This document shows positions 4,658 through 45,975 of a stretch of 64,000 nt of DNA, piece by piece. The number at the start of each line of letters is the position of its first letter. Position 1 is the first letter of the stretch. Below the pieces are notes generated by a model. The model saw nothing but the letters and a program-made list of their open reading frames with translations. It was not told the DNA's origin and made no database searches. Origin of the DNA: an uncultured bacterium. Lineage in GTDB: Bacteria > Chlamydiota > Chlamydiia > Chlamydiales > VFKH01. The stretch covers positions 11,026 to 75,025 of the forward strand of contig CAZQVA010000007.1 of the NCBI GenBank assembly GCA_964596685.1. The letters are read 5' to 3'. Both the position numbers and the translations under genes were made by a program.

Positions 4658-6079
4658 ATGTGTTTTCGCAGTAAAATTTTTATCTTTGTCGTTTTTTGCT
4701 GCATGGCAGCCTTTCATTTACACGCTAATGAGCGGATTCTCACGCTGCATGAAGCGCTACAATTGGCTATTAAAAATAACAAACAAATTCAAGAACTGCA
4801 ATCTCTATATCAAAAAGCCAAGGAAGGTCGATTGGAAGCTGTATCCAAGTGGTGGCCTACCATTGAGGCGATGAGTCAAGCCTATAAAACACAGCGAACC
4901 CTAGTTCCTCTATCAACTTCTGATATGAGTTTTACCTCACTTGTCCAACTGACACAATCGATCATCTCCACAGAGCGCTACTATGGACTACAAATTTCTA
5001 TACTCTTTCAAGAAAAACTTTGCTTACTCCTTCAAGCTGCTATCAATGATGTCATCTTTGCTGTACGTACTGCCTACTTACAAGTGATTCTTGATAAACG
5101 CCTCATGGACACTGCCAAAGAAAATGTGGATCTTCTCTCTCTGCTCGTTAAGCGCTCAGAGGATCTATATAAGATTGGCCGATCGATTCCTTACAATGTC
5201 AACCAAAGCCGAGTTGCTCTTGCAAACGCATCAACAGCTTATTTTCAGGGATTAAGACAGCTAAAAAATGACCGCGATATCTTGACACAATTACTAGGAC
5301 TAGATCCCGCCTGCGTGACTGTCGAAACCGCGGAAGAAAAGATTCCCTTAAATAAACTCCCCCTCATTGCCTGCAAACTACACCTTTTTTATGGCGGAGA
5401 GAGCCAAGATTTGTCATCCGCCGACATCATTGCCAAGATGTCCGTCGCCAAAGCAAACTCCCTCTTTTCCTGTCAGGAACTTGTCGAATTTGAAAAACAA
5501 GCCGATATTTTTCGCCCCGATATACGTCTTGGCAAAAATCACATTCAAATCGCCTCACAGGAAGTCAACCTCCGCAAAGGCGAGTATTTTCCTGCTATAG
5601 ATTTTGTCGCCAATTATGGTTCACTCGCCAACCCTTATGTTCCCAACCTCTCCAATAGTTTTTTTCATCAAGACTTTGAATGGGGCTTGGGTATTGAACT
5701 CAATTGGCTTTTATTTGATAGTTTTGGTAGGGAACATCGCATCAATGAAGCGAAAGCAGAGGTCTGTGCAACAAAATTTAATTTTGAACAAACACGACAA
5801 CTTGCCCACGTCGATGTTCGCAATCAAATCTATTCCATTGAAGAAGCTCTCTCTAACTATGCGACTTCAAAAGCAAGCGTCGCTCTTGCAGATGAATTAG
5901 TCTTGCAAAGTGAACAGCAGCTAGAAATTGGATATATTACTATTTTTGATTATCAGATCGCTATTGACACGCTGATTCAATCAAAATATATTTATGAAAA
6001 AGCGCGGTTTAATTTGGCTCATTCCTATTTTGGATTGCGCCATGCAACTGGCATTGATTTGGAGTGCAAAGCAAAATGA
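4658..6079 (+). CDS. TolC-family outer membrane efflux protein
   Basis: 473 aa. Signal peptide MCFRSKIFIFVVFCCMAAFHLHA, then a helical/beta repeat pattern typical of OEP proteins. First gene of a tolC-hlyD-MFS operon. Confidence 0.7.
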   Translation: MCFRSKIFIFVVFCCMAAFHLHANERILTLHEALQLAIKNNKQIQELQSLYQKAKEGRLEAVSKWWPTIEAMSQAYKTQRTLVPLSTSDMSFTSLVQLTQSIISTERYYGLQISILFQEKLCLLLQAAINDVIFAVRTAYLQVILDKRLMDTAKENVDLLSLLVKRSEDLYKIGRSIPYNVNQSRVALANASTAYFQGLRQLKNDRDILTQLLGLDPACVTVETAEEKIPLNKLPLIACKLHLFYGGESQDLSSADIIAKMSVAKANSLFSCQELVEFEKQADIFRPDIRLGKNHIQIASQEVNLRKGEYFPAIDFVANYGSLANPYVPNLSNSFFHQDFEWGLGIELNWLLFDSFGREHRINEAKAEVCATKFNFEQTRQLAHVDVRNQIYSIEEALSNYATSKASVALADELVLQSEQQLEIGYITIFDYQIAIDTLIQSKYIYEKARFNLAHSYFGLRHATGIDLECKAK

Positions 6080-7056
6080 GCCAACCAACACCCCCACCCA
6101 CACCTCCTGCAACGCCTCCACCATCTGCAACCACGCCAGTCAAAAATCCCGCTAAAAAGCGCTCATTCCTACAATGGATTATCTATCTCATCTTACTCTT
6201 ACTTTTAGCATGGGGTATCTGGAATTGGATGAATTATGCTAAAACGCACATTTCAACTAACGATGCCAATATCGATGCTTTCCATGTAGAAGTGAGCTCA
6301 GATCTGCTGCTGAGACTCATGCAAATGGAAGTTGATATTGGAGACTATGTAGAACAGGGACAACTTCTCTGTCAACTCGACACAAGAGTCCTCTTTCCCC
6401 AGCAACAGGCAGCGCTTGCAGAGTTAGAACAAGCAAACGCCCAACTCGATCTCGCCTACGTATTGCGTGCCCGCACTTATGATGATTATGAAAGGGGTGT
6501 GCGAGGATTTAATTTTAAAATCGTTTCGGTACAGGATTTTGACCACTTACAAAAGGCCTATGCTGCAGCCGAACAAGAGGTTAATGTCGCTCTAAAGCGC
6601 ATTCAAGCCGCCAAAGAGCAATTAAACGTCATGAATGCTTATCTTGAAAAAGCGCGCATTTTTGCTCCCATGAATGGAACTATTGCTAGACGCTGGAGTA
6701 TGGAGGGAGATGTCCTATCACCTGGGCAACCTATCTACTCTCTTTATGCGATGGAAAATCCCTGGGTCACCGCTTTTCTCCAAGAAGCTGATATCGCTCA
6801 TGTTCAATTAGGTGATCGCGTAGACATCCACGTCGACGCCTTTCCCGATCGTAAATTTTTTGGTCACGTGCTTATTATTGGCCCTGCAGCTGCAGGACAG
6901 TTTTCTCTCGTACCGCCCAATAATGCAACAGGTAATTATACAAAAGTAGCACAACGTATCCCATTGAGAATTTCCATTGCTCCAGAAGATGCTGGCAAGC
7001 AGCCTCATTTACGCGCAGGTATGTCTTGTGAAATTACAATTCACACCGAGAGATGA
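6076..7056 (+). CDS. HlyD/EmrA-family membrane fusion protein with Pro-rich N-terminus
   Basis: ATGA overlap with the tolC-like stop. N-terminus PTPPPTPPATPPPSATTP, then a single TM, a coiled-coil region and a beta-barrel C-terminus (VAQRIPLRI). The ORF track starts at GTG 6064. Confidence 0.75.
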   Translation: MSQPTPPPTPPATPPPSATTPVKNPAKKRSFLQWIIYLILLLLLAWGIWNWMNYAKTHISTNDANIDAFHVEVSSDLLLRLMQMEVDIGDYVEQGQLLCQLDTRVLFPQQQAALAELEQANAQLDLAYVLRARTYDDYERGVRGFNFKIVSVQDFDHLQKAYAAAEQEVNVALKRIQAAKEQLNVMNAYLEKARIFAPMNGTIARRWSMEGDVLSPGQPIYSLYAMENPWVTAFLQEADIAHVQLGDRVDIHVDAFPDRKFFGHVLIIGPAAAGQFSLVPPNNATGNYTKVAQRIPLRISIAPEDAGKQPHLRAGMSCEITIHTER

Positions 7057-8687
7057 TGGCACAAAAAGCCCTTCTTAATTGGGATAACCCTTCTGTTGTC
7101 TCTGATACAAACACCCTCAAACCTTGGTTCATTCATGCCATCATCAGTATTGTGACTGTCTTGGCAATTATCTCATCAGTGGGCACTTCGATTATTAACT
7201 CCAGCATGGCTGGTGAACTATATCTCGGCCAGTCGGTAATCATCTGGGTGAATACTAGCTTTTTAATGATGCTCGGTGTCTGTTTACCCGTATGTGGATG
7301 GCTCGCTGAAAAAATTGGCTTTAAACGTGTTTTCTGCCTTGGAGTGATTATCTTTAGCGTTTCTTCCGCAGGAATTGCTCTGTCTCAAAATGCCACAGAG
7401 CTCATCTTATTTCGCATTTTGGAAGGAACTGGCTCCGCTCTTGTCTTTCCCGTGAGCTTAGCGATCCTAGCTCACACTTTTGCTCCCAAACAAGTTCCTA
7501 TGGCAATCTCTTTGTATGTCACCATTGGATTTGGCTTAGGGATTGTTTTAGGGTTTATATTAGCTGGGTGGATTGGTCAATATTCCAGCTGGCAAATGCT
7601 TTTTTGGATTAACCCCATACTCGGTGTGCCATGTCTCATCGGAGCCATCGCACTCTTTAAAGAGACGCCACCTAAAGTCAATCAACCTCCTTTCGATATT
7701 CCCGGATTCATTTTCTTTAGTGGCTTTCTCGTTGCGGCCCTCGTTTTAATCAATAGCGTCAAAGCACCCTGGAATACAAAAGGGTGGTATTCGAATTTTA
7801 TTTACATTTGCTATGGAATAGGCGGCATCTCCTTGATTTGTTTTTTTGTACGCCAATACTTTACCCCTGCTCCGCTCCTTAACCTTTCCCTTTTCAAAGT
7901 GCGCCCTTTTACTGTTGGCTGTACCATCTTAGCAATCGCTGCAGGGCTTATGTTTGGAACGCTCAACATTAACCCGCTTATCCTAGAAAATGTACTACAA
8001 TATGACAAAATCACTTCAGGCATCTTAATGTCAAGTTGTGGAGTAGGATTAGCTGTCATGGGCCTTTTAGCTAGTTTAATGACGCGCTTTATCAATGTCC
8101 GCTACCTCACTATCATCGGACTTAGCGTTATTATACTCAGTTGTTATCTCTCGCAATGGATCACCATTCAAACTGAAAATTATTTGCATGTCCTTCTTAT
8201 GTTATTGCGCTTCTGTGGCGTAGGGCTTGCCCTTGGTCCCGTCACGTCGCTTGCTCTCATGGAGCTTACAAAGGAAGATGCAGGTCAAGGTGCTGTAACT
8301 GCAACATTTTTTCGTCAAATGGGTGCCGCTTTTGGCAGCTCAATTCTCACCATTATTATCAATTCGCAATTTGCTTTTCACAACTTGACATATGGCAGTC
8401 AAATGGATATCTCTTCGCCAGCCTATGAATATCACTTGCGCCAACTCACTAATCATATTTACCATTACACCTCTCACTCTCTACAAGAGGCTGAGTCACT
8501 AGCGAAGGGACAAATTGTAAACTATATCGAAGGACAAGCTTATATCAGCGCGATCAATGATGCCTACATGATCGCAGGAGTTGCTCTATCGTGCGCAGCT
8601 CTTGGATTAATATTGGTCATGATTGATAATTATCGCCTTAAGAAAAAACGTGAGAAACAAGCTCATGCAGCTATATCTAGGACTTGA
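7053..8687 (+). CDS. MFS drug:H+ antiporter, EmrB/QacA (14-TMS) type
   Basis: 544 aa, highly hydrophobic with ~14 predicted TM segments. MFS motif region WLAEKIGFKRVF. Overlaps the hlyD-like stop. Confidence 0.75.
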   Translation: MMAQKALLNWDNPSVVSDTNTLKPWFIHAIISIVTVLAIISSVGTSIINSSMAGELYLGQSVIIWVNTSFLMMLGVCLPVCGWLAEKIGFKRVFCLGVIIFSVSSAGIALSQNATELILFRILEGTGSALVFPVSLAILAHTFAPKQVPMAISLYVTIGFGLGIVLGFILAGWIGQYSSWQMLFWINPILGVPCLIGAIALFKETPPKVNQPPFDIPGFIFFSGFLVAALVLINSVKAPWNTKGWYSNFIYICYGIGGISLICFFVRQYFTPAPLLNLSLFKVRPFTVGCTILAIAAGLMFGTLNINPLILENVLQYDKITSGILMSSCGVGLAVMGLLASLMTRFINVRYLTIIGLSVIILSCYLSQWITIQTENYLHVLLMLLRFCGVGLALGPVTSLALMELTKEDAGQGAVTATFFRQMGAAFGSSILTIIINSQFAFHNLTYGSQMDISSPAYEYHLRQLTNHIYHYTSHSLQEAESLAKGQIVNYIEGQAYISAINDAYMIAGVALSCAALGLILVMIDNYRLKKKREKQAHAAISRT

Positions 8688-9309
8688 TCCTACACGACTC
8701 GCTCCACATGCGCATCACTACCCAATCATTGAAATTCATCCCCTACCCCATGCACTTGATCCCCTTATCGCATTCTGGCATACAGCTTCTCATATCATTT
8801 TTTCGAGCCGAACAGCTGTAAAAATTTTTTATCAGGAATCCCTTTCTCTAAGACTTCCCATTGATCATTTTCAAATACTGAGTATAGGGCAGGCAACTAC
8901 TGAACTAGCTACCGAATTGGGCTTCCGAGTCACTGCCACAGCACCGATTGCGCAGGCTGAGGGATTTCTTACCATCCTTCCTCCTAAAAACACCCTTCTC
9001 TTTTATCCCCACGCCAAGGGGGCTCGCGACGTGCTAAAAACAATGCTCCTAGAAGGACAGTATGCCTTTAAGGAAGCTATTTTGTATGAAACGCGGCCTA
9101 AAAACACACTAGAACCTATTGACCTCAAACTTTTTACGACACTCATCTTTTCAAGTCCCTCCTGCGTTCAAGCCTTTCTCCACCATTTTGGCACATTCCC
9201 CCCTAACACCACCCTCTTAGCAATTGGTGAAATCACACTTCACGCATTGAAAACCGCTCTTAGCCAGTTGAAACTGGACTTTAGACATGCGTCAATGTGT
9301 GGGGTGTAA
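8665..9309 (+). CDS. hemD: uroporphyrinogen-III synthase-like (HEM4 family)
   Basis: Two-lobed pattern IIFSSRTAV...ILSIGQATTELA and LIFSSPSCV...LLAIGEITLHAL typical of HemD. I chose the start at ATG 8665. The last two codons and the stop lie inside repeat element B1. Confidence 0.55.
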   Translation: MQLYLGLDPTRLAPHAHHYPIIEIHPLPHALDPLIAFWHTASHIIFSSRTAVKIFYQESLSLRLPIDHFQILSIGQATTELATELGFRVTATAPIAQAEGFLTILPPKNTLLFYPHAKGARDVLKTMLLEGQYAFKEAILYETRPKNTLEPIDLKLFTTLIFSSPSCVQAFLHHFGTFPPNTTLLAIGEITLHALKTALSQLKLDFRHASMCGV

Positions 9310-11084: not shown

Positions 11085-11247
11085 TATACCCATTTCACCT
11101 GAAGAATTGGTTTTAGACCGAGAGAAAGCCCCGGGCTCGAGCCATCAAAAAAGTCCCCATATTAGTAATATGAGGACTTTTTTGATGGCTCGATCGCGGG
11201 AGCTTTTTCTTCGGCCTAAAACCAATTCTTCAGGTGAAATGGGTATA
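11085..11247. mobile_element. Family-A palindromic element, copy A1 (between sctU and sctV)
   Basis: 163 bp with termini TATACCCATTTCACCTGAAGAATTGG ... CCAATTCTTCAGGTGAAATGGGTATA and nearly full-length arm pairing. GTTGAAC lies on both sides (11077-11083 and 11249-11255), offset by 1 nt from each end. Confidence 0.85.
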
Positions 11248-16686: not shown

Positions 16687-16850
16687 TATACCCATTTCAC
16701 CTGAAGAATTGGATTTTAGACCGAGAGAAAGCCCCGGGCTCGAGCCAGCAAAAAAGTTCCCATATTGGTAATATGAGGACTTTTTTGCTGGCTCGATCGC
16801 GGGAGCTTTTTCTTCGGCCTAAAACCAATTCTTCAGGTGAAATGGGTATA
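16687..16850. mobile_element. Family-A palindromic element, copy A2
   Basis: 164 bp, nearly identical to A1 and in the same orientation. Begins 6 nt after the malQ stop. Confidence 0.85.
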
Positions 16851-26435: not shown

Positions 26436-26601
26436 TATACCCATTCCATCTGAAGAATTGGATTTTAGGCCGAAGAAAAAGCTCTCGCGATCGAGGCAGA
26501 AAAAAAAGGCCTCATATTACTAATATGGGGGCTTTTTTTCTGCCTCGAGCTCGGAGGATTTTCTCGGCCTAAAATCCAATTCTCTAGGTGGAATGGGTAT
26601 A
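26436..26601. mobile_element. Family-A palindromic element, copy A3 (opposite arm order to A1/A2)
   Basis: 166 bp with termini TATACCCATTCCATCTGAAGAATTGG ... CCAATTCTCTAGGTGGAATGGGTATA. Ends 18 nt downstream of the minus-strand ahpC stop. Confidence 0.85.
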
Positions 26602-29475: not shown

Positions 29476-30363
29476 GGGCCGCTGCCTCAAAGAGCTGATT
29501 GCCTACATCAATAAAGAACAATTTGATTTACTTCACTTGCAAGAAGTGACAAGCGGTGTGTTAAGCTTTGCAGATGACACTTTCGAGACATTAAAGCGCG
29601 CCACTGGGCTTCATGGGACTTTGGTCATGGATTCAAAAGTCGATCAACAAGCAAATAGTTATACCCATCCCACCTGAAGAATTGGATTTTAGGCCGAAGA
29701 AAAAGCTTCCGCGATCGCGCCAGAAAAAAAGTCTCCATATTACTAATATGAGGACTTTTTTTCTGACTCGAGCCCGGGGCTTTCTCTTTAGTCTAAAATC
29801 CAATTCTTCAGGTGGGATGGGTATACATAGGAAATGCCACTTTATACCGCCCCCAATGGGTCTACTTAGACCATCATTTCATGCGTTTTCAGCCAGCAGA
29901 AATCATTTCCTATCCGGACACCAAAGATCCTAGTTTACACACTAGATCTGCCATTTTCATTAAATTTAAAACACCCAAAGAGGTATTTTGGAGCATTAAC
30001 ACCCATCTTGCCTGGGGGCCCACTCCACTTGATGAACCTTATAAAGTTAAAGAAGCTACCCTTCTTTCTGAAAAAATCATCACTTTAGACGCCCCTTTTA
30101 TCCTTTCTGGTGATTTCAATGTCACCAGAGAAACACAAACGGCTCATTTACTTGAGCAACATGGCTTTAGCCTAACGCGGCAGCACCAAATACCCAACAC
30201 TCTCAACCCAACTATTCACCGCAGCAAGCATCTTTTTCCAAAGGGTCTAGCTGTCGACTACTTAATTGTTCATCCTTCATTACACTGCGGAGGGTTTACC
30301 TGTGTCACCGAGCCTTCTCTCTCCGACCATTTCGCACTACGCGCCAATTTTAACGATTTATAA
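29444..30363 (+). pseudogene. endonuclease/exonuclease/phosphatase (EEP) family gene interrupted by repeat A4
   Basis: The N-terminal part (MMKFLQLNIY...LLHLQEV, strong AGGAGG RBS) stops at a TGA inside the repeat. The C-terminal part (INTHLAW, ILSGDFNV, SLSDHFAL) resumes in another frame right after the repeat. Removing 164 or 167 nt joins them in frame. Confidence 0.8.
29660..29825. mobile_element. Family-A palindromic element, copy A4, inserted in the EEP gene
   Basis: 166 bp with termini TATACCCATCCCACCTGAAGAATTGG ... CCAATTCTTCAGGTGGGATGGGTATA. ATAG lies next to both ends (29655-29658 and 29827-29830). Confidence 0.85.
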
Positions 30364-37582: not shown

Positions 37583-37749
37583 GACGTGAGCCTTTTGCAA
37601 AACTATCCGTAATATGAACTGGTTGCCTAGCAGCGATCTAAGGAGAAAACCTCCTTACGCATGGCTATGGTCATTCATGCGTCGCTTTTTTTTGAATCCT
37701 GCAGCCCTCACTCAGGTCCTATTATGGATAGTTTTTCAAAAGGCTCACG
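37583..37749. repeat. 25-nt inverted repeat pair enclosing ~117 nt (unclassified)
   Basis: CGTGAGCCTTTTGCAAAACTATCC (37583-37606) matches GGATAGTTTTTCAAAAGGCTCACG (37725-37749) apart from a one-nt bulge. Lies in the secDF upstream region. Confidence 0.5.
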
Positions 37750-37757
37750 TGAGTTCT

Positions 37758-37838
37758 ATATATGAGAGCTTTTTTTATGACTCGAGCTCAGGGCTTTCTC
37801 TTCTGTCTACAACCAATTCTTCAAGTGGAATGGGTATA
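37758..37838. repeat. Family-A half element (A5), broken at the palindrome centre
   Basis: ATATGAGAGC...CTCGAGCTCAGGGCTTTCTCTTCTGTCTACAACCAATTCTTCAAGTGGAATGGGTATA. Only one arm is present, and its terminus faces the RND operon. Confidence 0.8.
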
Positions 37839-37839
37839 T

Positions 37840-37863
37840 TAGACTTCTTTCGAAAGAAGTCTA
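37840..37863. repeat. Family-D minimal 24-bp perfect palindrome (D3), possible terminator of the RND operon
   Basis: TAGACTTCTTTCGAAAGAAGTCTA. Lies 2 nt downstream of the RND pump stop (minus strand) and 1 nt from A5. Confidence 0.75.
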
Positions 37864-37865
37864 TT

Positions 37866-40800
37866 TTAAATCGATGCATCCATGTCCTTTATTTTGGGTT
37901 GCAAGCGATCTAGGTAGATAAAGACAACTGGCATCAGGAAAAGTGTGAGTAGCTGAGAAAAGAGCAACCCTCCAATGAGTACCAAACCTAAAGGTTTACG
38001 CGCTTCACCCCCAGCACCGAGCCCTACAGCTACGGGCAAAGCCCCCATGATTGCTGCCAGAGTGGTCATTAAGATCGGACGAAAACGAATCAAAGCTGCC
38101 TCAAAGATCGCATCATGGGCGCCTTTGCCATTTTTTTTCATCTCATTAGCATAGTCGATCATCATGATCCCATTCTTTTGTACAATCCCAATCAAAAGCA
38201 CGAGACCTAATAACGCATACAAGGAAAGGATTTGATCAAAAGCTAGGAGAGTCAATAGTCCGCCAAGCACAGCAATGGGGAGTGCAGATAAAATGGTCAG
38301 CGGTAGAATAAAGCTCTCATATAGAATACCGAGAAGAATATAGATGAAGATAACCGCTATAATAATTAGGAAACGAAAGTCAGACATCGTCTCTTCAAAC
38401 TGTTGCGCTACCCCCTGCAAATCTCCATTCACCGACTGTGGCAACACTTCATCAGCAATTCCTCTCAATGTGGAAATTGCATCACTTAAAGGAATTTGAG
38501 GGGCCAAGCTAAAGGAAAGTGTCACCGAAGGGAACTGATTAAAGTGATTTACACTTGAAACACCTACCCCCTCCTTCATCTGTAAAATATTACTGAGTGG
38601 CACTACATTGCCTGGCGCAGATGGATTTTGAATATATAAAGCATTGAGATTATCAGGCTGATTGCTATAACTGGGTGTAACTTCCAGCACGACATTGTAT
38701 TCGTTGGCGGGAGTTTGCATCGTCGATACTTTTCCCCCACTCAATGCATAGCCCAAATTACCCTGCAGTGCTTGAGCGCTAATGCCATAGGAGGAAGCTG
38801 CATCTCTGTCGAGGGTTAATTCGATTTGCGGGGTCGTATTTTGTAGGTCATTGTTGACATTTATAAATCCAGGAACCATTTGCAGGCGTTGTGTCAATTT
38901 TGTGGCAGCATTATAGAGATCCTCTGGATTTAAACTTGACAAGACATACTGATAGTCCGCATTGCTCGTGGCCCCAACAGAAAGATTTAAAAATGGCAGT
39001 GCCTTGACATACGTAGCAATTCCGGGGATTTGCCAGAGGTCCACATTTAAATCCTGTAAAACATGCTGCACGGATGGCCTTTCATTAGCTGGTTTCAAAC
39101 GCGCAAACAATAAACCACTATTATTGCTAAGACCAGCAAGTGTTACGTAATCCACAATGTGTTTATTATCTGTAAACTCCTTGTTGACCTCCTGCTGCAA
39201 CTCTACGGAATGGCGTGTCGAAGAATTTTGCGCTGTCTGGGTATAGGCAATCAAAAATCCTAAATCGTCAGAGGCGGTTAAACTAGTTGGCAATTTTTGG
39301 AAAACAAAAACCGTTCCTATGAGGGCAGCCAAACCAATAATTAAAGTGAGTTTTGGCCAAACAAGCACCCATTCCAGTCCCTTGCGATATCCCTTGATCA
39401 AGGTGCGATTGATCTTTTCAGAAAAATGCACTTTGTTGTCTTCATCCGATTTTTTATGTGGAGGAAGAAAACGGCTACACAATAAAGGCGTTAATGTCAG
39501 TGAAATGACGCCCGAAGACATAATCGCCATCACCATAGTCACTGCAAACTCTCTAAATAACCTCCCCAACATGCCACTCAAGAATAGTAATGGAATAAAT
39601 ACCGCACACAGGGCAAGGGTCATTGTCATGACTGTGATACTAATTTGCGCTGAGCCATCTAATGCTGCCTTGTAAGGAGGTTTTCCCCCTTCAATATGGC
39701 GAACGATATTCTCCAGAACCACGATCGCATCATCGATGATGAATCCAATTGCCAATAAGAGGGCCATTAGAGAAAGGTTATCAAGTGTAAAACCGGCCAA
39801 ATCCATCAACATAAAAGTTGAAATCATACTCATGGGAATGACGACAACGGGGATAATCGTATCTTTGAATTTTCCAAGATAAATAAAAATTACAGCAACG
39901 ACCAAAATAAAGGCGACGAGCAAGGTGAACTCGACATCCTGAACAGAGGCAATAATGGAATCAGCACGATTGAAGATCGAATCAAAATAAATATTTGCAG
40001 GAATTTCCTTGCGCAAGTGAGGGAGTAATTGATCAATACCTTTAACAACTGCAATGGTATTCGCTTTTGGTTGTTTTTGAACCGCGATCACTGCTGTTGG
40101 CTGGTTAATACCTCGGCTAGCATTGACATAATTACAATAAAGGTAAGGCTGCTGCTGGCTATTAATCGCATACCCGACATCCCTAATTGAAAGAGGCGCT
40201 CCATTTTGTGTCGAGATGACAAGATTGTCATACCCTTCTGCGCGTAAGATTTGCCCATTGGGATTTTGTATCAGAAAATACCGCAAAACACCGTCATAGT
40301 CCCCTAATGGATAGTTGACATTCCCACCTGCAATTGTTGTTGCAATATTTGTTAAATCTAATCCCTTTGCAGCAAGGTTTTGAGGATCAATACGCACTCT
40401 TACAGCGTAAGGAGAGCCATAAGTAACAATTTGAGCAACCCCAGGAACCATTGACAATCGTTTTCCTACATAACTATCGGCATACTCATAGAGTTTATCA
40501 GGTTCCATAGTGGGAGAACTGACCACCATATATTGAATAGGCGCGGCTGAAGGGTTCACCTTTTCATAAGTCGGATTACTTGGCATCTGAGGCAAGAGAG
40601 GCAATGTAGCTGAAATTGCCGCATTAACATCCTGTGCTGCTGCATCAATATTCACAGAAAGATCAAACTGCAAGACGATTGTCGATGCCCCTTGTGTACT
40701 GGAAGACGTCATGACACGGATGCCATTAATAGCCATGAAGGCGCGCTCTAAAGGAGTCGCCACTGTGTCCGCCATCGTTTTAGGGCTACCACCTGGCAAA

Positions 40801-40949
40801 TAAGCAGACACTTCTAAAGTAGGGTATTCGACATCCGGCAAATCACTAACAGGCAGTCGATAGTAGGCTAAAAGACCTACACAAAGAATCGCTATCATCA
40901 CCAATGTGGTCATCACAGGACGACGGATGAAAGGTTCTGAAAGATTCAT
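37866..40949 (-). CDS. RND multidrug efflux pump, inner-membrane subunit (MdtB/AcrB-like, HAE1)
   Basis: 1027 aa. The N-terminus FIRRPVMTTLVMIAILCVGLLAYYRLPVSDLPDVEYPTLEVSAYLPGGSP..VATPLER parallels MdtB/AcrB. 12-TM architecture. Confidence 0.9.
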   Translation of the reverse strand: MNLSEPFIRRPVMTTLVMIAILCVGLLAYYRLPVSDLPDVEYPTLEVSAYLPGGSPKTMADTVATPLERAFMAINGIRVMTSSSTQGASTIVLQFDLSVNIDAAAQDVNAAISATLPLLPQMPSNPTYEKVNPSAAPIQYMVVSSPTMEPDKLYEYADSYVGKRLSMVPGVAQIVTYGSPYAVRVRIDPQNLAAKGLDLTNIATTIAGGNVNYPLGDYDGVLRYFLIQNPNGQILRAEGYDNLVISTQNGAPLSIRDVGYAINSQQQPYLYCNYVNASRGINQPTAVIAVQKQPKANTIAVVKGIDQLLPHLRKEIPANIYFDSIFNRADSIIASVQDVEFTLLVAFILVVAVIFIYLGKFKDTIIPVVVIPMSMISTFMLMDLAGFTLDNLSLMALLLAIGFIIDDAIVVLENIVRHIEGGKPPYKAALDGSAQISITVMTMTLALCAVFIPLLFLSGMLGRLFREFAVTMVMAIMSSGVISLTLTPLLCSRFLPPHKKSDEDNKVHFSEKINRTLIKGYRKGLEWVLVWPKLTLIIGLAALIGTVFVFQKLPTSLTASDDLGFLIAYTQTAQNSSTRHSVELQQEVNKEFTDNKHIVDYVTLAGLSNNSGLLFARLKPANERPSVQHVLQDLNVDLWQIPGIATYVKALPFLNLSVGATSNADYQYVLSSLNPEDLYNAATKLTQRLQMVPGFINVNNDLQNTTPQIELTLDRDAASSYGISAQALQGNLGYALSGGKVSTMQTPANEYNVVLEVTPSYSNQPDNLNALYIQNPSAPGNVVPLSNILQMKEGVGVSSVNHFNQFPSVTLSFSLAPQIPLSDAISTLRGIADEVLPQSVNGDLQGVAQQFEETMSDFRFLIIIAVIFIYILLGILYESFILPLTILSALPIAVLGGLLTLLAFDQILSLYALLGLVLLIGIVQKNGIMMIDYANEMKKNGKGAHDAIFEAALIRFRPILMTTLAAIMGALPVAVGLGAGGEARKPLGLVLIGGLLFSQLLTLFLMPVVFIYLDRLQPKIKDMDASI

Positions 40950-42181
40950 GAATGATCTCTCCCTTCAAGATGTGCAATTTTACGAAGGATACGCCTCGAT
41001 GGGTGCATTGAAGGGCTCTTCAATTCATGCTCATCCTTTGTAAGGTCATGTGTAATATTGACAGGTGCATCAGGATAAAGATTTAACTGCCCCACAGTAA
41101 CTACCTCTGTGTTTGCTTCAAGACCACTTTTAATCTCTGTCCATTCATCTGTTGCCACTCCAGTCACTACTTCTTGCATTTTTACTGTATGGTCTTTTGT
41201 CACTACATAAACGAATTTGCCCTTAGCCCCCACCTGGATAGCCAATGTAGGCACGACGACAGCATCTTTATTCACATACATCTGTAGTTCACCGCGCACA
41301 AATTGCCCTGGCCAACCATCTAAATTCTCGTTTTTAAAGCGGGCTTTGATATTGATGGTTCCAGTTTGTGCATTGACTACGTTGTCAATGGCTATTAATT
41401 CTCCTTCAAGATGTGGCTGTGTTGGGCTCGAAAAAGAAATCACAATCTTTAATGGCGCTTCCTTTTGACGATTTTTAACGGTGTCCAGCCAAATTTCTGG
41501 TAAATTTAAGATGGCATCAATTGGGCTAACTTGAGCGACTGTCGCAATAAATGGGTTGCTGTATGAAAGGTTAAAAACGTTACCCACTGTCACCTGCACT
41601 AAACCAAAGATACCATCGACAGGAGCACGTAATTCAGTAAACCCTAATTGCGCTTGTGCATAGACTAAAGCTCCCTTATCGGACAGCAACTGTCCTTCAG
41701 CAGCTAGGACAGCGGCCTGATACTGTGCCATTGTCAAAGGTGCCACAAAGTTTTGAGGCACAAGGGCCGCATAGCTTTTGAGCTGTTCTTTGGCATATTG
41801 TAAATTCGCCTCATCCTTCATAATATTTCCTTGAACTTGCTCCACAAGCCCTAAGAAGGGTGTCGGATCAATGCGAACTAACAAATCTCCCGTTTTAACC
41901 ATTGCCCCATCTTTGGGAACAATTTCAACGACCTCTCCCGACACCTGAGGCACAAGCTGGACGAGATTGGGAGACTGCAAATGGCCAATGACGCGCAAGG
42001 TCACAGGCACATCGCGCGTATAACTCTTATCAACTTTCACGGGGAAACTAAAGGCTGCAGGCTGCGCCACATGCGCGCTTGCTTTATCTTGAGCCTTCTT
42101 CTTGCAGCCAGAGACTTGTAAAAGTAAAATACCTAGTGAGCAAACATAGACCAAATGTATGATATACTTCTTTTTAAGCAT
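40946..42181 (-). CDS. RND efflux membrane fusion protein (lipoprotein)
   Basis: 411 aa with lipobox LLQVSGC and HlyD/biotinyl-lipoyl-like plus beta-barrel regions. 4-nt overlap with the pump gene. Confidence 0.85.
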   Translation of the reverse strand: MLKKKYIIHLVYVCSLGILLLQVSGCKKKAQDKASAHVAQPAAFSFPVKVDKSYTRDVPVTLRVIGHLQSPNLVQLVPQVSGEVVEIVPKDGAMVKTGDLLVRIDPTPFLGLVEQVQGNIMKDEANLQYAKEQLKSYAALVPQNFVAPLTMAQYQAAVLAAEGQLLSDKGALVYAQAQLGFTELRAPVDGIFGLVQVTVGNVFNLSYSNPFIATVAQVSPIDAILNLPEIWLDTVKNRQKEAPLKIVISFSSPTQPHLEGELIAIDNVVNAQTGTINIKARFKNENLDGWPGQFVRGELQMYVNKDAVVVPTLAIQVGAKGKFVYVVTKDHTVKMQEVVTGVATDEWTEIKSGLEANTEVVTVGQLNLYPDAPVNITHDLTKDEHELKSPSMHPSRRILRKIAHLEGRDHS

Positions 42182-43565
42182 CTACAAGCCCTCCTCTTGC
42201 ATAAGCCAAGTTAGCCAACGAAATAAAATATGTTGTTTCTGCCTGAATTAATGCACTGCGCGCATCACTTAACGTTGCTTGTGCTTGCAACAGATCGACA
42301 ATATCGTTAATACCAGACCTATACCCAACCAATATTGCATCATATGCTTCTTCTGCATATTCTAAATATTCTCTACTATACTCAACACTTGCAACCGATC
42401 CACGCACAGTATAGTAATTTGTCAACAGCGTTAAGAAAACTGCATTCTCTTGCACTTGTAGTGCAGCAACTGCTTCTTCCCAATCGGCAATTGCTTGTAA
42501 ATAACTGTTTAAGTCATTGAAGCCGTTAAAAATCGGTAAATTCATCACTAATTCAAAGTTAAAATCCGCTCCATCACTTCCCAAATGTTTAAAGTAGGTC
42601 GTTCCATACTGCCCATTAAAGTTTAAAGTGGGGTAAAAGGCGGAGTTTGCTTGTGCAATGAGAGCAGCTTGCGATTGGATGCGTGCGCGCAAGGCTTGTA
42701 GATCGGCGCGACAATATTTTGCCTCCTGTACTAAACGACAGGTATCAGCTTGCACCTCATGGATATTAGATAGATCTGGATAAACGACATCAAACTGTGT
42801 GTCGGGGCGCACACCTACAGCACTTGCTAATGTGGCTTGGGCTGTTTCAAGAGAGACCTCTTGGTTAACGAGATTCAATTTCGCATTATAATACTGCGCT
42901 TTAGCCTGTAATACATCCACAATTGTATCAATACCAGCACTAAACTGAGCTTCAGAGGCTGCAAGCGTCATTTCTGCATTCTCTAAATCAGCTTGGCGCG
43001 CCACCAATAATTCCTCAGCGGCGATGAGTTGATAATAAGCTTGAATCACATTGATCATCACTGTCTGGATTTGCCAGCTATAATTCCAATTTGCTGCCAC
43101 TAAAGCTGCTTTTGCTGATTCAATTCCCGCATCACGACCACCAAAATCAAGCAATAAATAATTTACATACAGCGAAGCCGCATAGGTAGTATATCCATAA
43201 ATTGACCCCAACAGCGTCAATTGAGCTGGATGCGCACGCGTTACCGTGAGAGTTCCATCGACTGTCGGATAAAGGCTGCTTTCAGCAATCCCTAAAGCGG
43301 CTACTGCTTGCTTGGCTTGAGCCCATATCTCTTTACTTGTAGGTTGATTACAAAGACCAATATCCACAAGTTGTGCTAGCGCAATACGCTGCCCGTCATA
43401 AATGTAAGGAGGGGGTTGACAAAGAGGAGCAGGAGGAGTGGCGCGTTCCTTATGGCAAGGCGACAGAGGCAAAAGGGCTGGCATGCGGGGCTTCCAACAC
43501 CCTGTCAGCGTTGCCGCTAAAAGGGTACAAATGCATGTTAGTTCAAGCCACCGCCGATTCTTCAC
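42174..43565 (-). CDS. RND efflux outer membrane factor lipoprotein (NodT/OprM-like)
   Basis: 463 aa with lipobox TLTGC and two OEP repeats. 8-nt overlap with the MFP gene. Confidence 0.85.
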   Translation of the reverse strand: MKNRRWLELTCICTLLAATLTGCWKPRMPALLPLSPCHKERATPPAPLCQPPPYIYDGQRIALAQLVDIGLCNQPTSKEIWAQAKQAVAALGIAESSLYPTVDGTLTVTRAHPAQLTLLGSIYGYTTYAASLYVNYLLLDFGGRDAGIESAKAALVAANWNYSWQIQTVMINVIQAYYQLIAAEELLVARQADLENAEMTLAASEAQFSAGIDTIVDVLQAKAQYYNAKLNLVNQEVSLETAQATLASAVGVRPDTQFDVVYPDLSNIHEVQADTCRLVQEAKYCRADLQALRARIQSQAALIAQANSAFYPTLNFNGQYGTTYFKHLGSDGADFNFELVMNLPIFNGFNDLNSYLQAIADWEEAVAALQVQENAVFLTLLTNYYTVRGSVASVEYSREYLEYAEEAYDAILVGYRSGINDIVDLLQAQATLSDARSALIQAETTYFISLANLAYARGGLVDA

Positions 43566-44961
43566 TCCGCTTCCTCACCGTCATCCACACGTTGTATACG
43601 AAAAGACAATTTCCAAAAAGAATTATTACACCACTAATCGCGCGCGCGACCCAAAATGGAAACATTTTTGCTAATGTGTCTAAGAATGAGAGAGCACCAA
43701 ACTGCGCCTGCATGACAGGATATGAGTCGCCTTGTCCCCAGGAGTTCCACATTAATCCCTGCCAGTATCCTCCCAGCATCAATGAGAAAAACATTAAAAG
43801 AGCTCCCCAAAAATTGCAGTGAAAGTGCCACTTACTGAGGGATTCTGAATGCATAGGGCGTTTATACATGATCATCAAAGCCCCATAAATGCCACCAAAA
43901 GCAAAAAACGAGAAACTTCCAAAGAGAGCCAGATGCGCGTGGCCAATTATCCAGTCTGTTTTGGAGGTAATCGCATTCACTGAACGCAGCGATTGAAGTG
44001 GCCCTTGAATGCATGTAACAAGGTAGAATAGAGTGCCGGCAGCAAAAAACCGCAATGGTATACTCTTTAACCCTTCCTTCCAACGCACTTTTAAGGTGCC
44101 AAAGAAGTTTGTTACTACTGTCCAAACGGGGATAAAAAGCCAAATTGAAAAAATAATACTTGTTGTTTGTAACCACTGTGAAATAGGACCATGAATCATA
44201 TGATGAGCTCCTACCCAGGCGTATACAAATGCCACCGACCAAAACCCAATCATAGAAAGTCGATGGCTATAAAGTGGAGTATCCGAAATTTTAGGGATAA
44301 AATAGTAGGCGATTGCCAGCCCCATGGGAGTAAAAATTAGACCCACAAGATTGTGCACATAAAAAAAGTTCACATTCACGCGTGCCACGCCACCAGGCAC
44401 CCAATCCATGACTAAATTTCCTGCAATAAAAGTAATAGCTGTCCAAAAGAGCGTTCCTAAACCATACCAAAGAGCAACATAAATCTTTTTGTAGTGTCTG
44501 CGTACAACCGTCATGGTTAAATTAAGTGAAAAGAGTACCCAGATAAACGCAATCAACCCCTTAATGGGTAACCAGCCAAAAAGCCACATGGGCAATTCCG
44601 CGTATTCCCACCCCCAATTATATCCAAATGGCAGTGAGAAGACGCCTAAACATAAGACAATCCACCACAAAATATTGGTTACATAGGCGAGTTTTATGCT
44701 CCATAGAGGCACTCCAGCCAAACGCGGTACGATAAAATAGAAAAGGCCCATATTAGCTGATAAAAGCCATAACCAAGCGATTGCATTGACATGTACAGGC
44801 CTTAAACGGCCAAATTGCAATAAAGGTTCATTGATCACATTAGGAAAAAGAAATGTACTTATTGCGAGAAATAGCCCTATACCCATCCCTAAGATAAGAA
44901 AGAAAATAGAAGGAAAGAGCATCTGGCGAGAAGGGCGATCATCGAAAGTTGTCATATTCAT
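43543..44961 (-). CDS. ccoN: cbb3-type heme-copper oxidase subunit I (CcoN-like), no ccoO/ccoP adjacent
   Basis: ~472 aa with 12 or more TM segments. All canonical ligand regions are present: LRPVHVN (helix II His), FFYVHNLVGLIFT (CuB His), FVYAWVGAHHMIHGP (Tyr at -6 plus HH), DWIIGHAHLALFG (HxH). I chose the start MNMTTF. The ORF-track N-terminus runs through repeat A6 and rnpB. Confidence 0.8.
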   Translation of the reverse strand: MNMTTFDDRPSRQMLFPSIFFLILGMGIGLFLAISTFLFPNVINEPLLQFGRLRPVHVNAIAWLWLLSANMGLFYFIVPRLAGVPLWSIKLAYVTNILWWIVLCLGVFSLPFGYNWGWEYAELPMWLFGWLPIKGLIAFIWVLFSLNLTMTVVRRHYKKIYVALWYGLGTLFWTAITFIAGNLVMDWVPGGVARVNVNFFYVHNLVGLIFTPMGLAIAYYFIPKISDTPLYSHRLSMIGFWSVAFVYAWVGAHHMIHGPISQWLQTTSIIFSIWLFIPVWTVVTNFFGTLKVRWKEGLKSIPLRFFAAGTLFYLVTCIQGPLQSLRSVNAITSKTDWIIGHAHLALFGSFSFFAFGGIYGALMIMYKRPMHSESLSKWHFHCNFWGALLMFFSLMLGGYWQGLMWNSWGQGDSYPVMQAQFGALSFLDTLAKMFPFWVARAISGVIILFGNCLFVYNVWMTVRKRSEESAVA

Positions 44962-45030
44962 CAAATGTTTGATACAATAAGAGAAAGCTACACTGCTTTG
45001 ATTTAAGGTGTCTAGCAATTTTCTGGACTT

Positions 45031-45080
45031 TATACCCATTCCACTTGAAGAATTGGTTTTAGACAGAAGAGAAGGCCCTT
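45031..45080. repeat. Family-A half element (A6), terminus facing the ccoN-RND block
   Basis: TATACCCATTCCACTTGAAGAATTGGTTTTAGACAGAAGAGAAGGCCC. 47 of its first 49 nt are identical to the reverse complement of A5. Confidence 0.8.
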
Positions 45081-45097
45081 CAAATCTAAAATTTCGT

Positions 45098-45478
45098 TGT
45101 GGGAAGAGATGCAATCGCTCGTTCAAAGTTTGACCGAGAGGAAAGTCTGGACTTTTTAGGGACAAGATACCAGTGAAAGACTGGGGACCATCAGAAGGTC
45201 ACGGAAAGTGCAACAGAAAATACCCCTCCCAGATTTAATGGGTAAGGATGAAAATGCTTCTTTAATAAAAGAGGCCTGATTTTAGGCAACTAAAACAGCT
45301 GTAAACCCTATCTAAAGCAAGATCGGATGTTGTTCATATGCTGTGGTCCGCGGCGAACAACATATTTTTAGTATCGCTTGAGGGCAGTGGTGACACTGCT
45401 CCTTAGACAAATGATTGCACGCATTGTCTCTTTTATTAGCGACAATGCCGACAGAATCCGGCTTATTATCTTCCCACA
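45098..45478 (+). ncRNA. rnpB: RNase P RNA, bacterial type A
   Basis: Conserved blocks GAGAGGAAAGTCTGGAC, AGTGCAACAGAAAATACC, GGGTAAGGATGAAA and CGACAGAATCCGGCTTA. The P1 helix pairs TGTGGGAAGA (45098-) with TCTTCCCACA (-45478). Confidence 0.9.
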
Positions 45479-45975
45479 TTTTTTTTGTTGTAATCGGACT
45501 CACGTTTTTCAAGCAGAAGTAGAGCTTGCTTCCTCTCTACTCCCCCAGCATATCCGTGCAAACGCCCATCTGAACCAATCACCCTATGACAAGGAATAAT
45601 GATAGACAAGGGATTGCATCCAACAGCATTGGCGACGGCTCGCACCGCATCCACTCTACCTATCTGCTGCGCAATCTCTTTATACGTAGTAACTGTTCCA
45701 TAAGGGATCTTTTGCAATGCTTTCCAAGTATCCTGTTGCAAAGGAGTGCCACCTAATAAATGGTAGGGCATGTCAAAGCGCGTGCGGCATTTATGAAAGT
45801 ATTCATTCAATGCTTGATGTAGCTCTAAAAATAAGGGATGCTCGTGATCATGAATCCATGTGGGTTGAATCGCAGGCAGAGCCTTCTGTGGCACAAAGTA
45901 AAGTCCACAAAGAGCGCCGTCCTGCGCTACCACCCGCATCTGTCCAAGAGGCGTATCAATATGCGTATATTCCAT
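45466..45975 (-). CDS. ogt: methylated-DNA--protein-cysteine methyltransferase
   Basis: 169 aa with active site IIIPCHRVIGSDG and a helix-turn-helix region TYKEIAQQIG. Its 3' end overlaps the rnpB 3' end by 13 nt (convergent). Confidence 0.9.
   Translation of the reverse strand: MEYTHIDTPLGQMRVVAQDGALCGLYFVPQKALPAIQPTWIHDHEHPLFLELHQALNEYFHKCRTRFDMPYHLLGGTPLQQDTWKALQKIPYGTVTTYKEIAQQIGRVDAVRAVANAVGCNPLSIIIPCHRVIGSDGRLHGYAGGVERKQALLLLEKRESDYNKKNVGR

Follow-up and report, generated by a model that had tools for sequence, protein, structure and literature searches.

A gene for the catalytic subunit of a cbb3-type (C-family haem-copper) oxidase, a high-affinity oxygen reductase, ccoN, was found as the first gene of an operon that otherwise encodes a tripartite efflux pump of the resistance-nodulation-division (RND) type. 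It lies at 43543..44961 on the minus strand of a 64,000-nucleotide stretch of DNA from an uncultured bacterium (GenBank assembly GCA_964596685.1, contig CAZQVA010000007.1, positions 11,026 to 75,025), which is referred to as the window throughout. The window is chlamydial and comes from an environmental chlamydia, with an RpoD model match of the chlamydial type, Chlam_OMP, CT398-like and CT584-type neighbours, type III secretion system (T3SS) genes and a fused SecDF. The gene is intact, although ccoO and ccoP are absent from the locus. With a probability of roughly two in three, we infer that it encodes a working CcoN that was displaced from its respiratory operon and is served by a CcoO encoded elsewhere in the genome.

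A predicted full-length cbb3 catalytic subunit

The ccoN open reading frame (ORF) extends over 43543..45165 (minus strand) and was translated from the ATG at 44961. The resulting protein of 472 aa begins with MNMTTFDDRP, and its N-terminus agrees with those of its homologues. It matched Pfam COX1 at 2.4e-77, and a sequence search of the PDB returned solved CcoN chains aligned over residues 4-465 (9g6b_A, 9.6e-65; 3mk7_A, 2.5e-63) and no protein other than CcoN at E<=1e-3. An AlphaFold2 model (pTM 0.83) was compared with known structures using Foldseek and matched those of CcoN with TM 0.86-0.88 and E about 6e-24 (3mk7_A: TM 0.87, E 6.8e-24). By sequence and by model, 43543..44961 encodes a full-length C-family (cbb3) CcoN. 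The identification as a nitric oxide reductase of the NorB type (cNOR/qNOR) was considered and rejected: the fold match to NorB was weaker (TM 0.79-0.80, E about 1e-12), the CuB histidine triad and the cross-link tyrosine are present, and neither NCBIfam nor the search of PDB sequences returned a match to the NorB family.

The initial annotation had stated that the protein carries every canonical ligand, and this was borne out by alignment with CcoN of Pseudomonas stutzeri and by invariance within the family. The predicted haem b ligands are H57 and H343 (P. stutzeri H60 and H347), the haem b3 ligand is H341 (H345), and the CuB ligands are H203, within the motif YVHNLVG, and H253/H254 (H207 and H257/H258). 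The candidate residue for the covalent cross-link, Y247 (Y251), is found at the helix VII position typical of the C-family, in the motif YAWVGAHH, six residues before the first histidine. The glutamate of the calcium site is E119 (E122). The six histidines, the tyrosine and this glutamate are all invariant in the alignment of chlamydial CcoN proteins, and the window CcoN retains 9/9 catalytic or cofactor residues and 144 of the 156 family-conserved columns.

It scored 266.5 bits against the NCBIfam model for cbb3 subunit I (TIGR00780), for which the equivalog cutoff is 583. Chlamydial CcoN proteins from complete ccoN-ccoO operons score 269-288 bits, so the low value is a trait of the phylum rather than of this gene. 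At the positions of P. stutzeri E323 and H243, which figure in proton-pathway models, all 15 aligned chlamydial CcoN proteins carry glutamine (Q319 in the window) and glycine (G239), respectively. The difference is a family trait and not particular to the orphan copy.

Organization of the ccoN-efflux operon

The 3' end of ccoN, with its TGA stop codon at 43545-43543, overlaps by 23 nt (43543..43565, minus strand) the start of a gene for an outer membrane factor (OMF) lipoprotein of the TolC/NodT type (42174..43565, minus strand; Pfam OEP, 1.4e-54, 185 bits; NCBIfam TolC/NodT subfamilies). The OMF gene starts with GTG at 43565-43563, and a Shine-Dalgarno-like GAGGA (43576-43572) is located 7 nt upstream of it, inside ccoN. 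This GTG is the only start that gives a signal peptide (n-region KNRR, lipobox LTGC). The OMF gene in turn overlaps by 8 nt a gene for an MdtA/MuxA-like periplasmic adaptor or membrane fusion protein (MFP; 40946..42181, minus strand; TIGR01730, 209.7 bits against a cutoff of 94.9), which overlaps by 4 nt the gene for an RND permease of the HAE1 family (MdtB/C-like; 37866..40949, minus strand; Pfam ACR_tran, 899 bits). The genes for OMF, MFP and RND permease are thus contiguous, and the three overlaps, as reported in the initial annotation, were reproduced by the ORF coordinates and the analysis of OMF starts. The best homologues of the RND protein are chlamydial, at 55% identity; a scan of metagenome contigs with this protein yielded no relatives. 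There is neither room nor an ORF for ccoQ between ccoN and the OMF gene, and the FixP_N/small-subunit hidden Markov models (HMMs) gave no match.

On the other side of ccoN, the 500 nt that had been described as empty contain the RNase P RNA gene rnpB (45099..45481, plus strand; Rfam RF00010, 206.5 bits, full length). It is divergent from ccoN and is encoded on the strand opposite the upstream part of the extended ccoN ORF; 16 nt of it are shared with the 3' end of an ogt ORF. Because of its position, the 540-aa ORF and the 498-aa ccoN start assigned by NCBI are doubtful, and the ccoN promoter, or the start of the transcription unit, is confined to the ~137 nt upstream of the ATG. In scans for promoter and terminator consensus sequences, promoter-like sites were fewer than in shuffled sequences, and no site emerged by which the transcript could be delimited. 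Co-transcription of ccoN with the pump genes is likely because the genes overlap, leave no room for another gene and are not separated by a terminator; transcription of the whole unit probably starts in the short region between rnpB and ccoN.

The arrangement is real and was found in three assemblies and two strains. Logan contigs L089 and L090 (runs SRR14271335 and SRR14271332) matched the window with 0 mismatches over 12.9 and 12.1 kb, including the ccoN-OMF junction, and contig L093 from another study (ERR7015365) was 98.6% identical, without gaps, and preserved the order of the four genes. Two of these contigs, L089 and L093, end at 45060, a little upstream of ccoN; the breaks fall at a 49-nt repeat (described below) and not at the ccoN-OMF junction. 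The base composition, GC and GC3 of ccoN match those of its neighbours, as expected for a native gene.

The window also contains a second tripartite efflux system (4658-8687, plus strand), composed of an OMF, an HlyD-type MFP and a transporter of the major facilitator superfamily (MFS) and followed by the haem-synthesis gene hemD (8623-9309).

Comparison with other chlamydial ccoN loci

Homologues with 52-63% identity over the full length of CcoN were all from Chlamydiota. The context of ccoN was surveyed by tblastn in 80 species-representative genomes and several metagenome contigs (~85 loci), and CcoN identity to the window never exceeded 61% among the 80 representative-genome loci. At every surveyed locus with downstream sequence, ccoO was found directly 3' of ccoN, overlapping or abutting it. 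In most loci, genes for an Fe-S/FAD oxidoreductase, a Rieske protein, cytochrome b and a multihaem cytochrome c of 1150-1330 aa were located upstream of ccoN, and one or two small ORFs followed ccoN-ccoO. An OMF, MFP or RND gene within 8 kb of ccoN was found in none (0/~85) of these related loci, and the closest homologue (P0003), from another sample, is part of a normal cytochrome c-ccoN-ccoO order. The ccoN-pump arrangement is therefore specific to the lineage of the window among the ~85 loci. The description given in the initial annotation, a catalytically complete orphan ccoN heading an RND operon, stands, and the arrangement is unusual with respect to its relatives.

The order oxidoreductase, (FixS), Rieske protein, cytochrome b, cytochrome c, CcoN, CcoO was observed in L001 (2262-12878), L005 (2337-13039), L094 (1205-11404) and most of L009-L088, and the cluster looks like an operon for a hard-wired bc-cbb3 supercomplex. 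The chlamydial CcoO proteins are unusually long (407-429 aa), and a CcoO-like domain covers only about residues 250-357. A cbb3 oxidase (CcoNO) has been reconstructed as ancestral in Chlamydiae (PMC9816063). One of the surveyed clusters, L094 (GCA_041166445.1, JBFPED010012961.1), is located on a chlamydia-like 54-kb contig with 54.7% GC in an assembly whose >12,000 contigs presumably represent the genome of a eukaryotic host together with symbiont or contaminant sequence. The CcoN protein P0041, encoded on a 54-kb contig, was considered as a second CcoN of the metagenome-assembled genome (MAG) that contains the window and rejected, given a GC content of 54.7% compared with 43.3% and the lack of repeat copies. 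In the 3.3-Mb MAG MFD00082, rpoD was called as three fragments of 217, 81 and 117 aa (L001, 17494-19061), more probably the product of frameshifts introduced by long-read assembly than a pseudogene.

Partner genes were sought in the 64 kb of the window by tblastn and, in all six-frame ORFs, with unfiltered (--max) profile HMMs derived from 47-81 orthologues. No CcoO, FixP_N, Rieske protein, cytochrome b, giant cytochrome c or Fe-S oxidoreductase was detected, and no ORF in the window was a plausible c-type cytochrome. The neighbouring ccoO that marks a cbb3 complex was recovered neither by tblastn nor by profile HMM; the initial annotation had noted that no ccoO, ccoP or ccoQ follows ccoN. Remnants of the giant cytochrome c gene or of ccoO were likewise not found at the borders of ccoN, either with the HMMs or by sensitive blastx of 44940-45480, which gave nothing below E=3.9.

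Selection on ccoN

Selection was estimated by comparison of the window with the L093 strain (98.6% identical); for ccoN, the estimate is based on 10 substitutions only. Nine of these are synonymous and one is a conservative replacement (I301V), corresponding to a dN/dS of 0.031, which is indistinguishable from the values for the pump genes (OMF 0.054, MFP 0.050, RND 0.034). The probability of finding at most one nonsynonymous change among 10 under neutrality is 9.7e-6. The gene is under purifying selection and therefore in use, and, since both strains already carry the orphan arrangement, this selection postdates the loss of its neighbours. Relaxed selection, which the initial annotation had named as an outcome that would count against its proposal, was not seen, with a dN/dS of ~0.03 that equals those of the neighbouring pump genes.

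Within the block compared (37840-45060), dS climbs from ccoN (0.029) through OMF (0.035) and MFP (0.063) to RND (0.076), and 0 differences separate the strains in the 99 nt that precede the ccoN ATG. Recombination, or tighter constraint on the ccoN side, may account for this pattern.

At the level of the family, the window CcoN ranks 91/96 among the matches to the CcoN of its sister, and its identities of 53-57% accompany rpoD identities of 79-80%; the corresponding values for pairs of Parachlamydiaceae are 75-88% and 87-96%. The sister lineages, which carry 7-10 changes of their own at family-conserved positions, possess complete cytochrome c-ccoN-ccoO clusters. Much of this divergence characterizes the whole lineage, since the sisters diverge as well and the RND protein is just as isolated (best match 55%). 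Relaxed selection, as suggested by the family-level divergence, was rejected on the basis of the dN/dS between strains and the isolation of the RND protein.

Palindromic repeats and the origin of the arrangement

A 49-nt inverted-repeat arm (45031..45079) is located directly upstream of ccoN, and a matching arm (37790..37838; 47/49 complementary), part of a half-copy at ~37740-37838, lies directly downstream of the RND gene, so that the two bracket exactly the ccoN-OMF-MFP-RND block. The arms are end pieces of a family of palindromic repeats, of which four complete intergenic copies were found in the window (11085-11247, 16687-16850, 26436-26601 and 29660-29825). These elements of 163 nt are almost perfectly palindromic and resemble miniature inverted-repeat transposable elements (MITEs). 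Their ends, which are terminal inverted repeats, read TATACCCATTYCAYCTGAAGAATTGG, and their centre is an A7-hairpin-T7 structure like that of a bidirectional terminator. The RNA fold of one element reached -121 kcal/mol (z = -21.6), and Rfam gave no match for the 163-nt element.

Contigs built from short reads are interrupted at these repeats. The copies on either side of the block are more alike to each other than to the other copies, and they point their outer ends towards it, in keeping with a segment enclosed by two elements of the same subfamily. The repeats do not explain the ccoN-OMF junction, which is internal to the block, but they show that the genome has a substrate for frequent recombination, and the flanking copies point to rearrangement rather than design. 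In the 460-nt intergenic region between SecDF and RND, a separate inverted repeat (37584-37750) has 38-nt arms that are 89% complementary and enclose a 91-nt spacer; beside it is a perfect 10-bp palindromic, terminator-like hairpin (37840-37863).

In six loci of Parachlamydiaceae, rpoD/CoiA are located 4.5-6.5 kb downstream of the cbb3 cluster, and in two other loci a homologue of YjbH is found a few kb downstream of it. In the window, the distances from ccoN are 1.2 kb for CoiA, 2 kb for rpoD and 10 kb for YjbH. With moderate confidence only, these distances suggest that ccoN has stayed close to its ancestral neighbourhood and that the rest of the cluster was moved or lost around it.

Interpretation of the orphan gene

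The ancestral cluster would have encoded the Fe-S oxidoreductase, the Rieske protein, cytochrome b, the giant multihaem cytochrome c, CcoN, the long CcoO and the small subunits. Through local rearrangement, in a genome rich in repeats, ccoN would then have been separated from this cluster in the lineage of the window alone. It would have come to lie ~1-2 kb from CoiA and rpoD, both of which are found near the cluster in Parachlamydiaceae, and have been joined by the 23-nt translational overlap to the front of the OMF-MFP-RND operon. CcoN would still act as the O2-reducing cbb3 subunit and be fed by a CcoO (and cytochrome c) whose genes lie at another site in the genome, whether on relocated fragments of the operon or in a second complete operon for which the window copy would provide an alternative N subunit. 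Its co-expression with the pump would be incidental.

An ordinary O2-reducing CcoN with CcoO elsewhere is the best explanation because of the strong purifying selection, the complete set of ligands and the presence of hemD in the window. CcoN and CcoO constitute the minimal functional unit, and in Pseudomonas the orphan CcoN proteins are assembled with CcoO/P that complete operons elsewhere in the genome supply (PMC5697931). By analogy, a catalytic subunit that relies on a distant CcoO would fit best among the three meanings proposed in the initial annotation; the window gene may nevertheless be the only ccoN of its genome, and so represent a split operon and not a spare isoform. The other two proposals, an NO/O2-detoxifying module co-regulated with efflux and a new functional coupling with the tripartite pump, found no support beyond adjacency in one lineage, and because the linkage occurs in a single lineage there is no comparative support for a functional coupling of CcoN with efflux. 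The arrangement is most likely a by-product of genome shuffling and not a new machine.

Several observations weigh against a displaced but otherwise ordinary subunit. Neither ccoO nor a gene for cytochrome c or for assembly was observed in the 64 kb of the window and ~4 kb past one end. The window CcoN carries private changes in 12 of the 156 columns that are at least 95% conserved, compared with a mean of 2 and with 7-10 in the sister lineages; its mean identity is the lowest (0.56 versus 0.65 +/- 0.03), and its terminal branch is the longest, at 0.35 from the node shared with its sisters (theirs 0.15-0.29). This divergence could reflect an altered role. The ten substitutions available are a small basis for the estimate of selection on ccoN.

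A role of CcoN that is independent of CcoO is unlikely. The protein would then act together with the pump as a stand-alone haem-copper scavenger of O2 or NO, or as a redox sensor, and would take electrons from quinol or another donor. Such a role would be in line with the selection that keeps CcoN in an arrangement that lacks ccoO, with the translational overlap with the first pump gene, and with the private changes at family-conserved positions, which are more numerous than in any other member and about half of which fall in predicted periplasmic loops (N35S, G45E, T114Y, S193A, N327S and E330A, according to the model topology and the alignment). Sisters with complete operons, however, also carry 7-10 such changes, the arrangement is confined to one lineage, and CcoN, with 472 aa collinear with known CcoN, lacks an added domain or extension of the qNOR kind; moreover, a C-family enzyme that functions in the absence of CcoO is not known (PMC5697931). 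The corresponding history, in which the lineage lost CcoO together with the bc/cytochrome c module and CcoN was selected either alone or with a donor other than cytochrome c, as an O2/NO-consuming or redox-sensing partner co-expressed with the pump, is quite unlikely.

We consider it very unlikely that ccoN has lost its function and is left over from a dismantled cbb3 operon, with an ORF that is kept open only to drive expression of the downstream pump genes. The partner genes are indeed absent from the locus, the branch is the longest in the CcoN family, and the ribosome-binding site and start of the OMF gene lie inside ccoN. Coupling, however, constrains only the reading frame and would not protect amino-acid identity, which disfavours both a relic and an ORF maintained for coupling alone: nine of ten changes between the strains are synonymous and the tenth is I to V (P about 1e-5), and the retention of all catalytic or cofactor residues, together with most family-conserved columns, also speaks against decay.

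An assembly or binning chimera, in which a ccoN fragment was joined to an unrelated pump operon, can be practically dismissed. The contig is metagenome-assembled, and two Logan contigs break just upstream of ccoN. The junction, however, is internal to three contigs that were assembled independently in two studies, the breaks coincide with the 49-nt repeat and not with the junction, and the composition is uniform.

Implications

It is much more likely that CcoO is encoded elsewhere, the ordinary case, than that it is truly absent. In the ordinary case, the gene would be the first documented orphan or split ccoN outside Proteobacteria and would illustrate how repeat-driven rearrangement scatters the genes of a respiratory complex in intracellular bacteria while function is kept. 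If CcoO was in fact lost, the protein would be the first CcoO-independent member of the C-family of haem-copper proteins, and a lone CcoN maintained by selection would challenge CcoN plus CcoO as the minimal unit of this family. The main use of the ordinary case would be as a caution for pathway calls in MAGs, in that a ccoN lacking ccoO need not be a pseudogene. The surprise for specialists is mild and would be greater only if a complete genome were found to lack ccoO.

Comparison with known systems

The window CcoN is a new member of the known family of chlamydial CcoN proteins, and the most divergent one sampled. It shares the invariant residues and the sub-threshold TIGR00780 score with the operon-encoded proteins of Parachlamydiaceae, Waddliaceae, Simkania and many MAGs; their genes adjoin ccoO, whereas the window gene adjoins OMF-MFP-RND and is accompanied neither by ccoO nor by genes for small subunits, the bc module or cytochrome c. 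The CcoN structures of P. stutzeri and P. aeruginosa (3MK7, 5DJQ, 8SMR and 9G6B) share its predicted 12-helix fold (TM 0.86-0.88), and their ligands, cross-link tyrosine and calcium-site glutamate align with those of the window protein, although sequence identity is only 28-31%. NorB of cNOR and qNOR has a related fold of the haem-copper superfamily (TM 0.73-0.80) but is matched less well (E 1e-12 versus 6e-24 for CcoN) and with 18-21% identity, and the window CcoN lacks the N-terminal extension of qNOR.

Orphan ccoN3Q3 and ccoN4Q4 loci of P. aeruginosa were reportedly described by Hirai in 2016. Like these loci (Jo et al. 2017, PMC5697931), the window has a catalytically complete ccoN that stands apart from any ccoO and is kept by selection. 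Its arrangement is new relative to such known orphans: they are accompanied by ccoQ, whereas the window ccoN lacks ccoQ, belongs to a different phylum and is the first cistron of an RND efflux operon.

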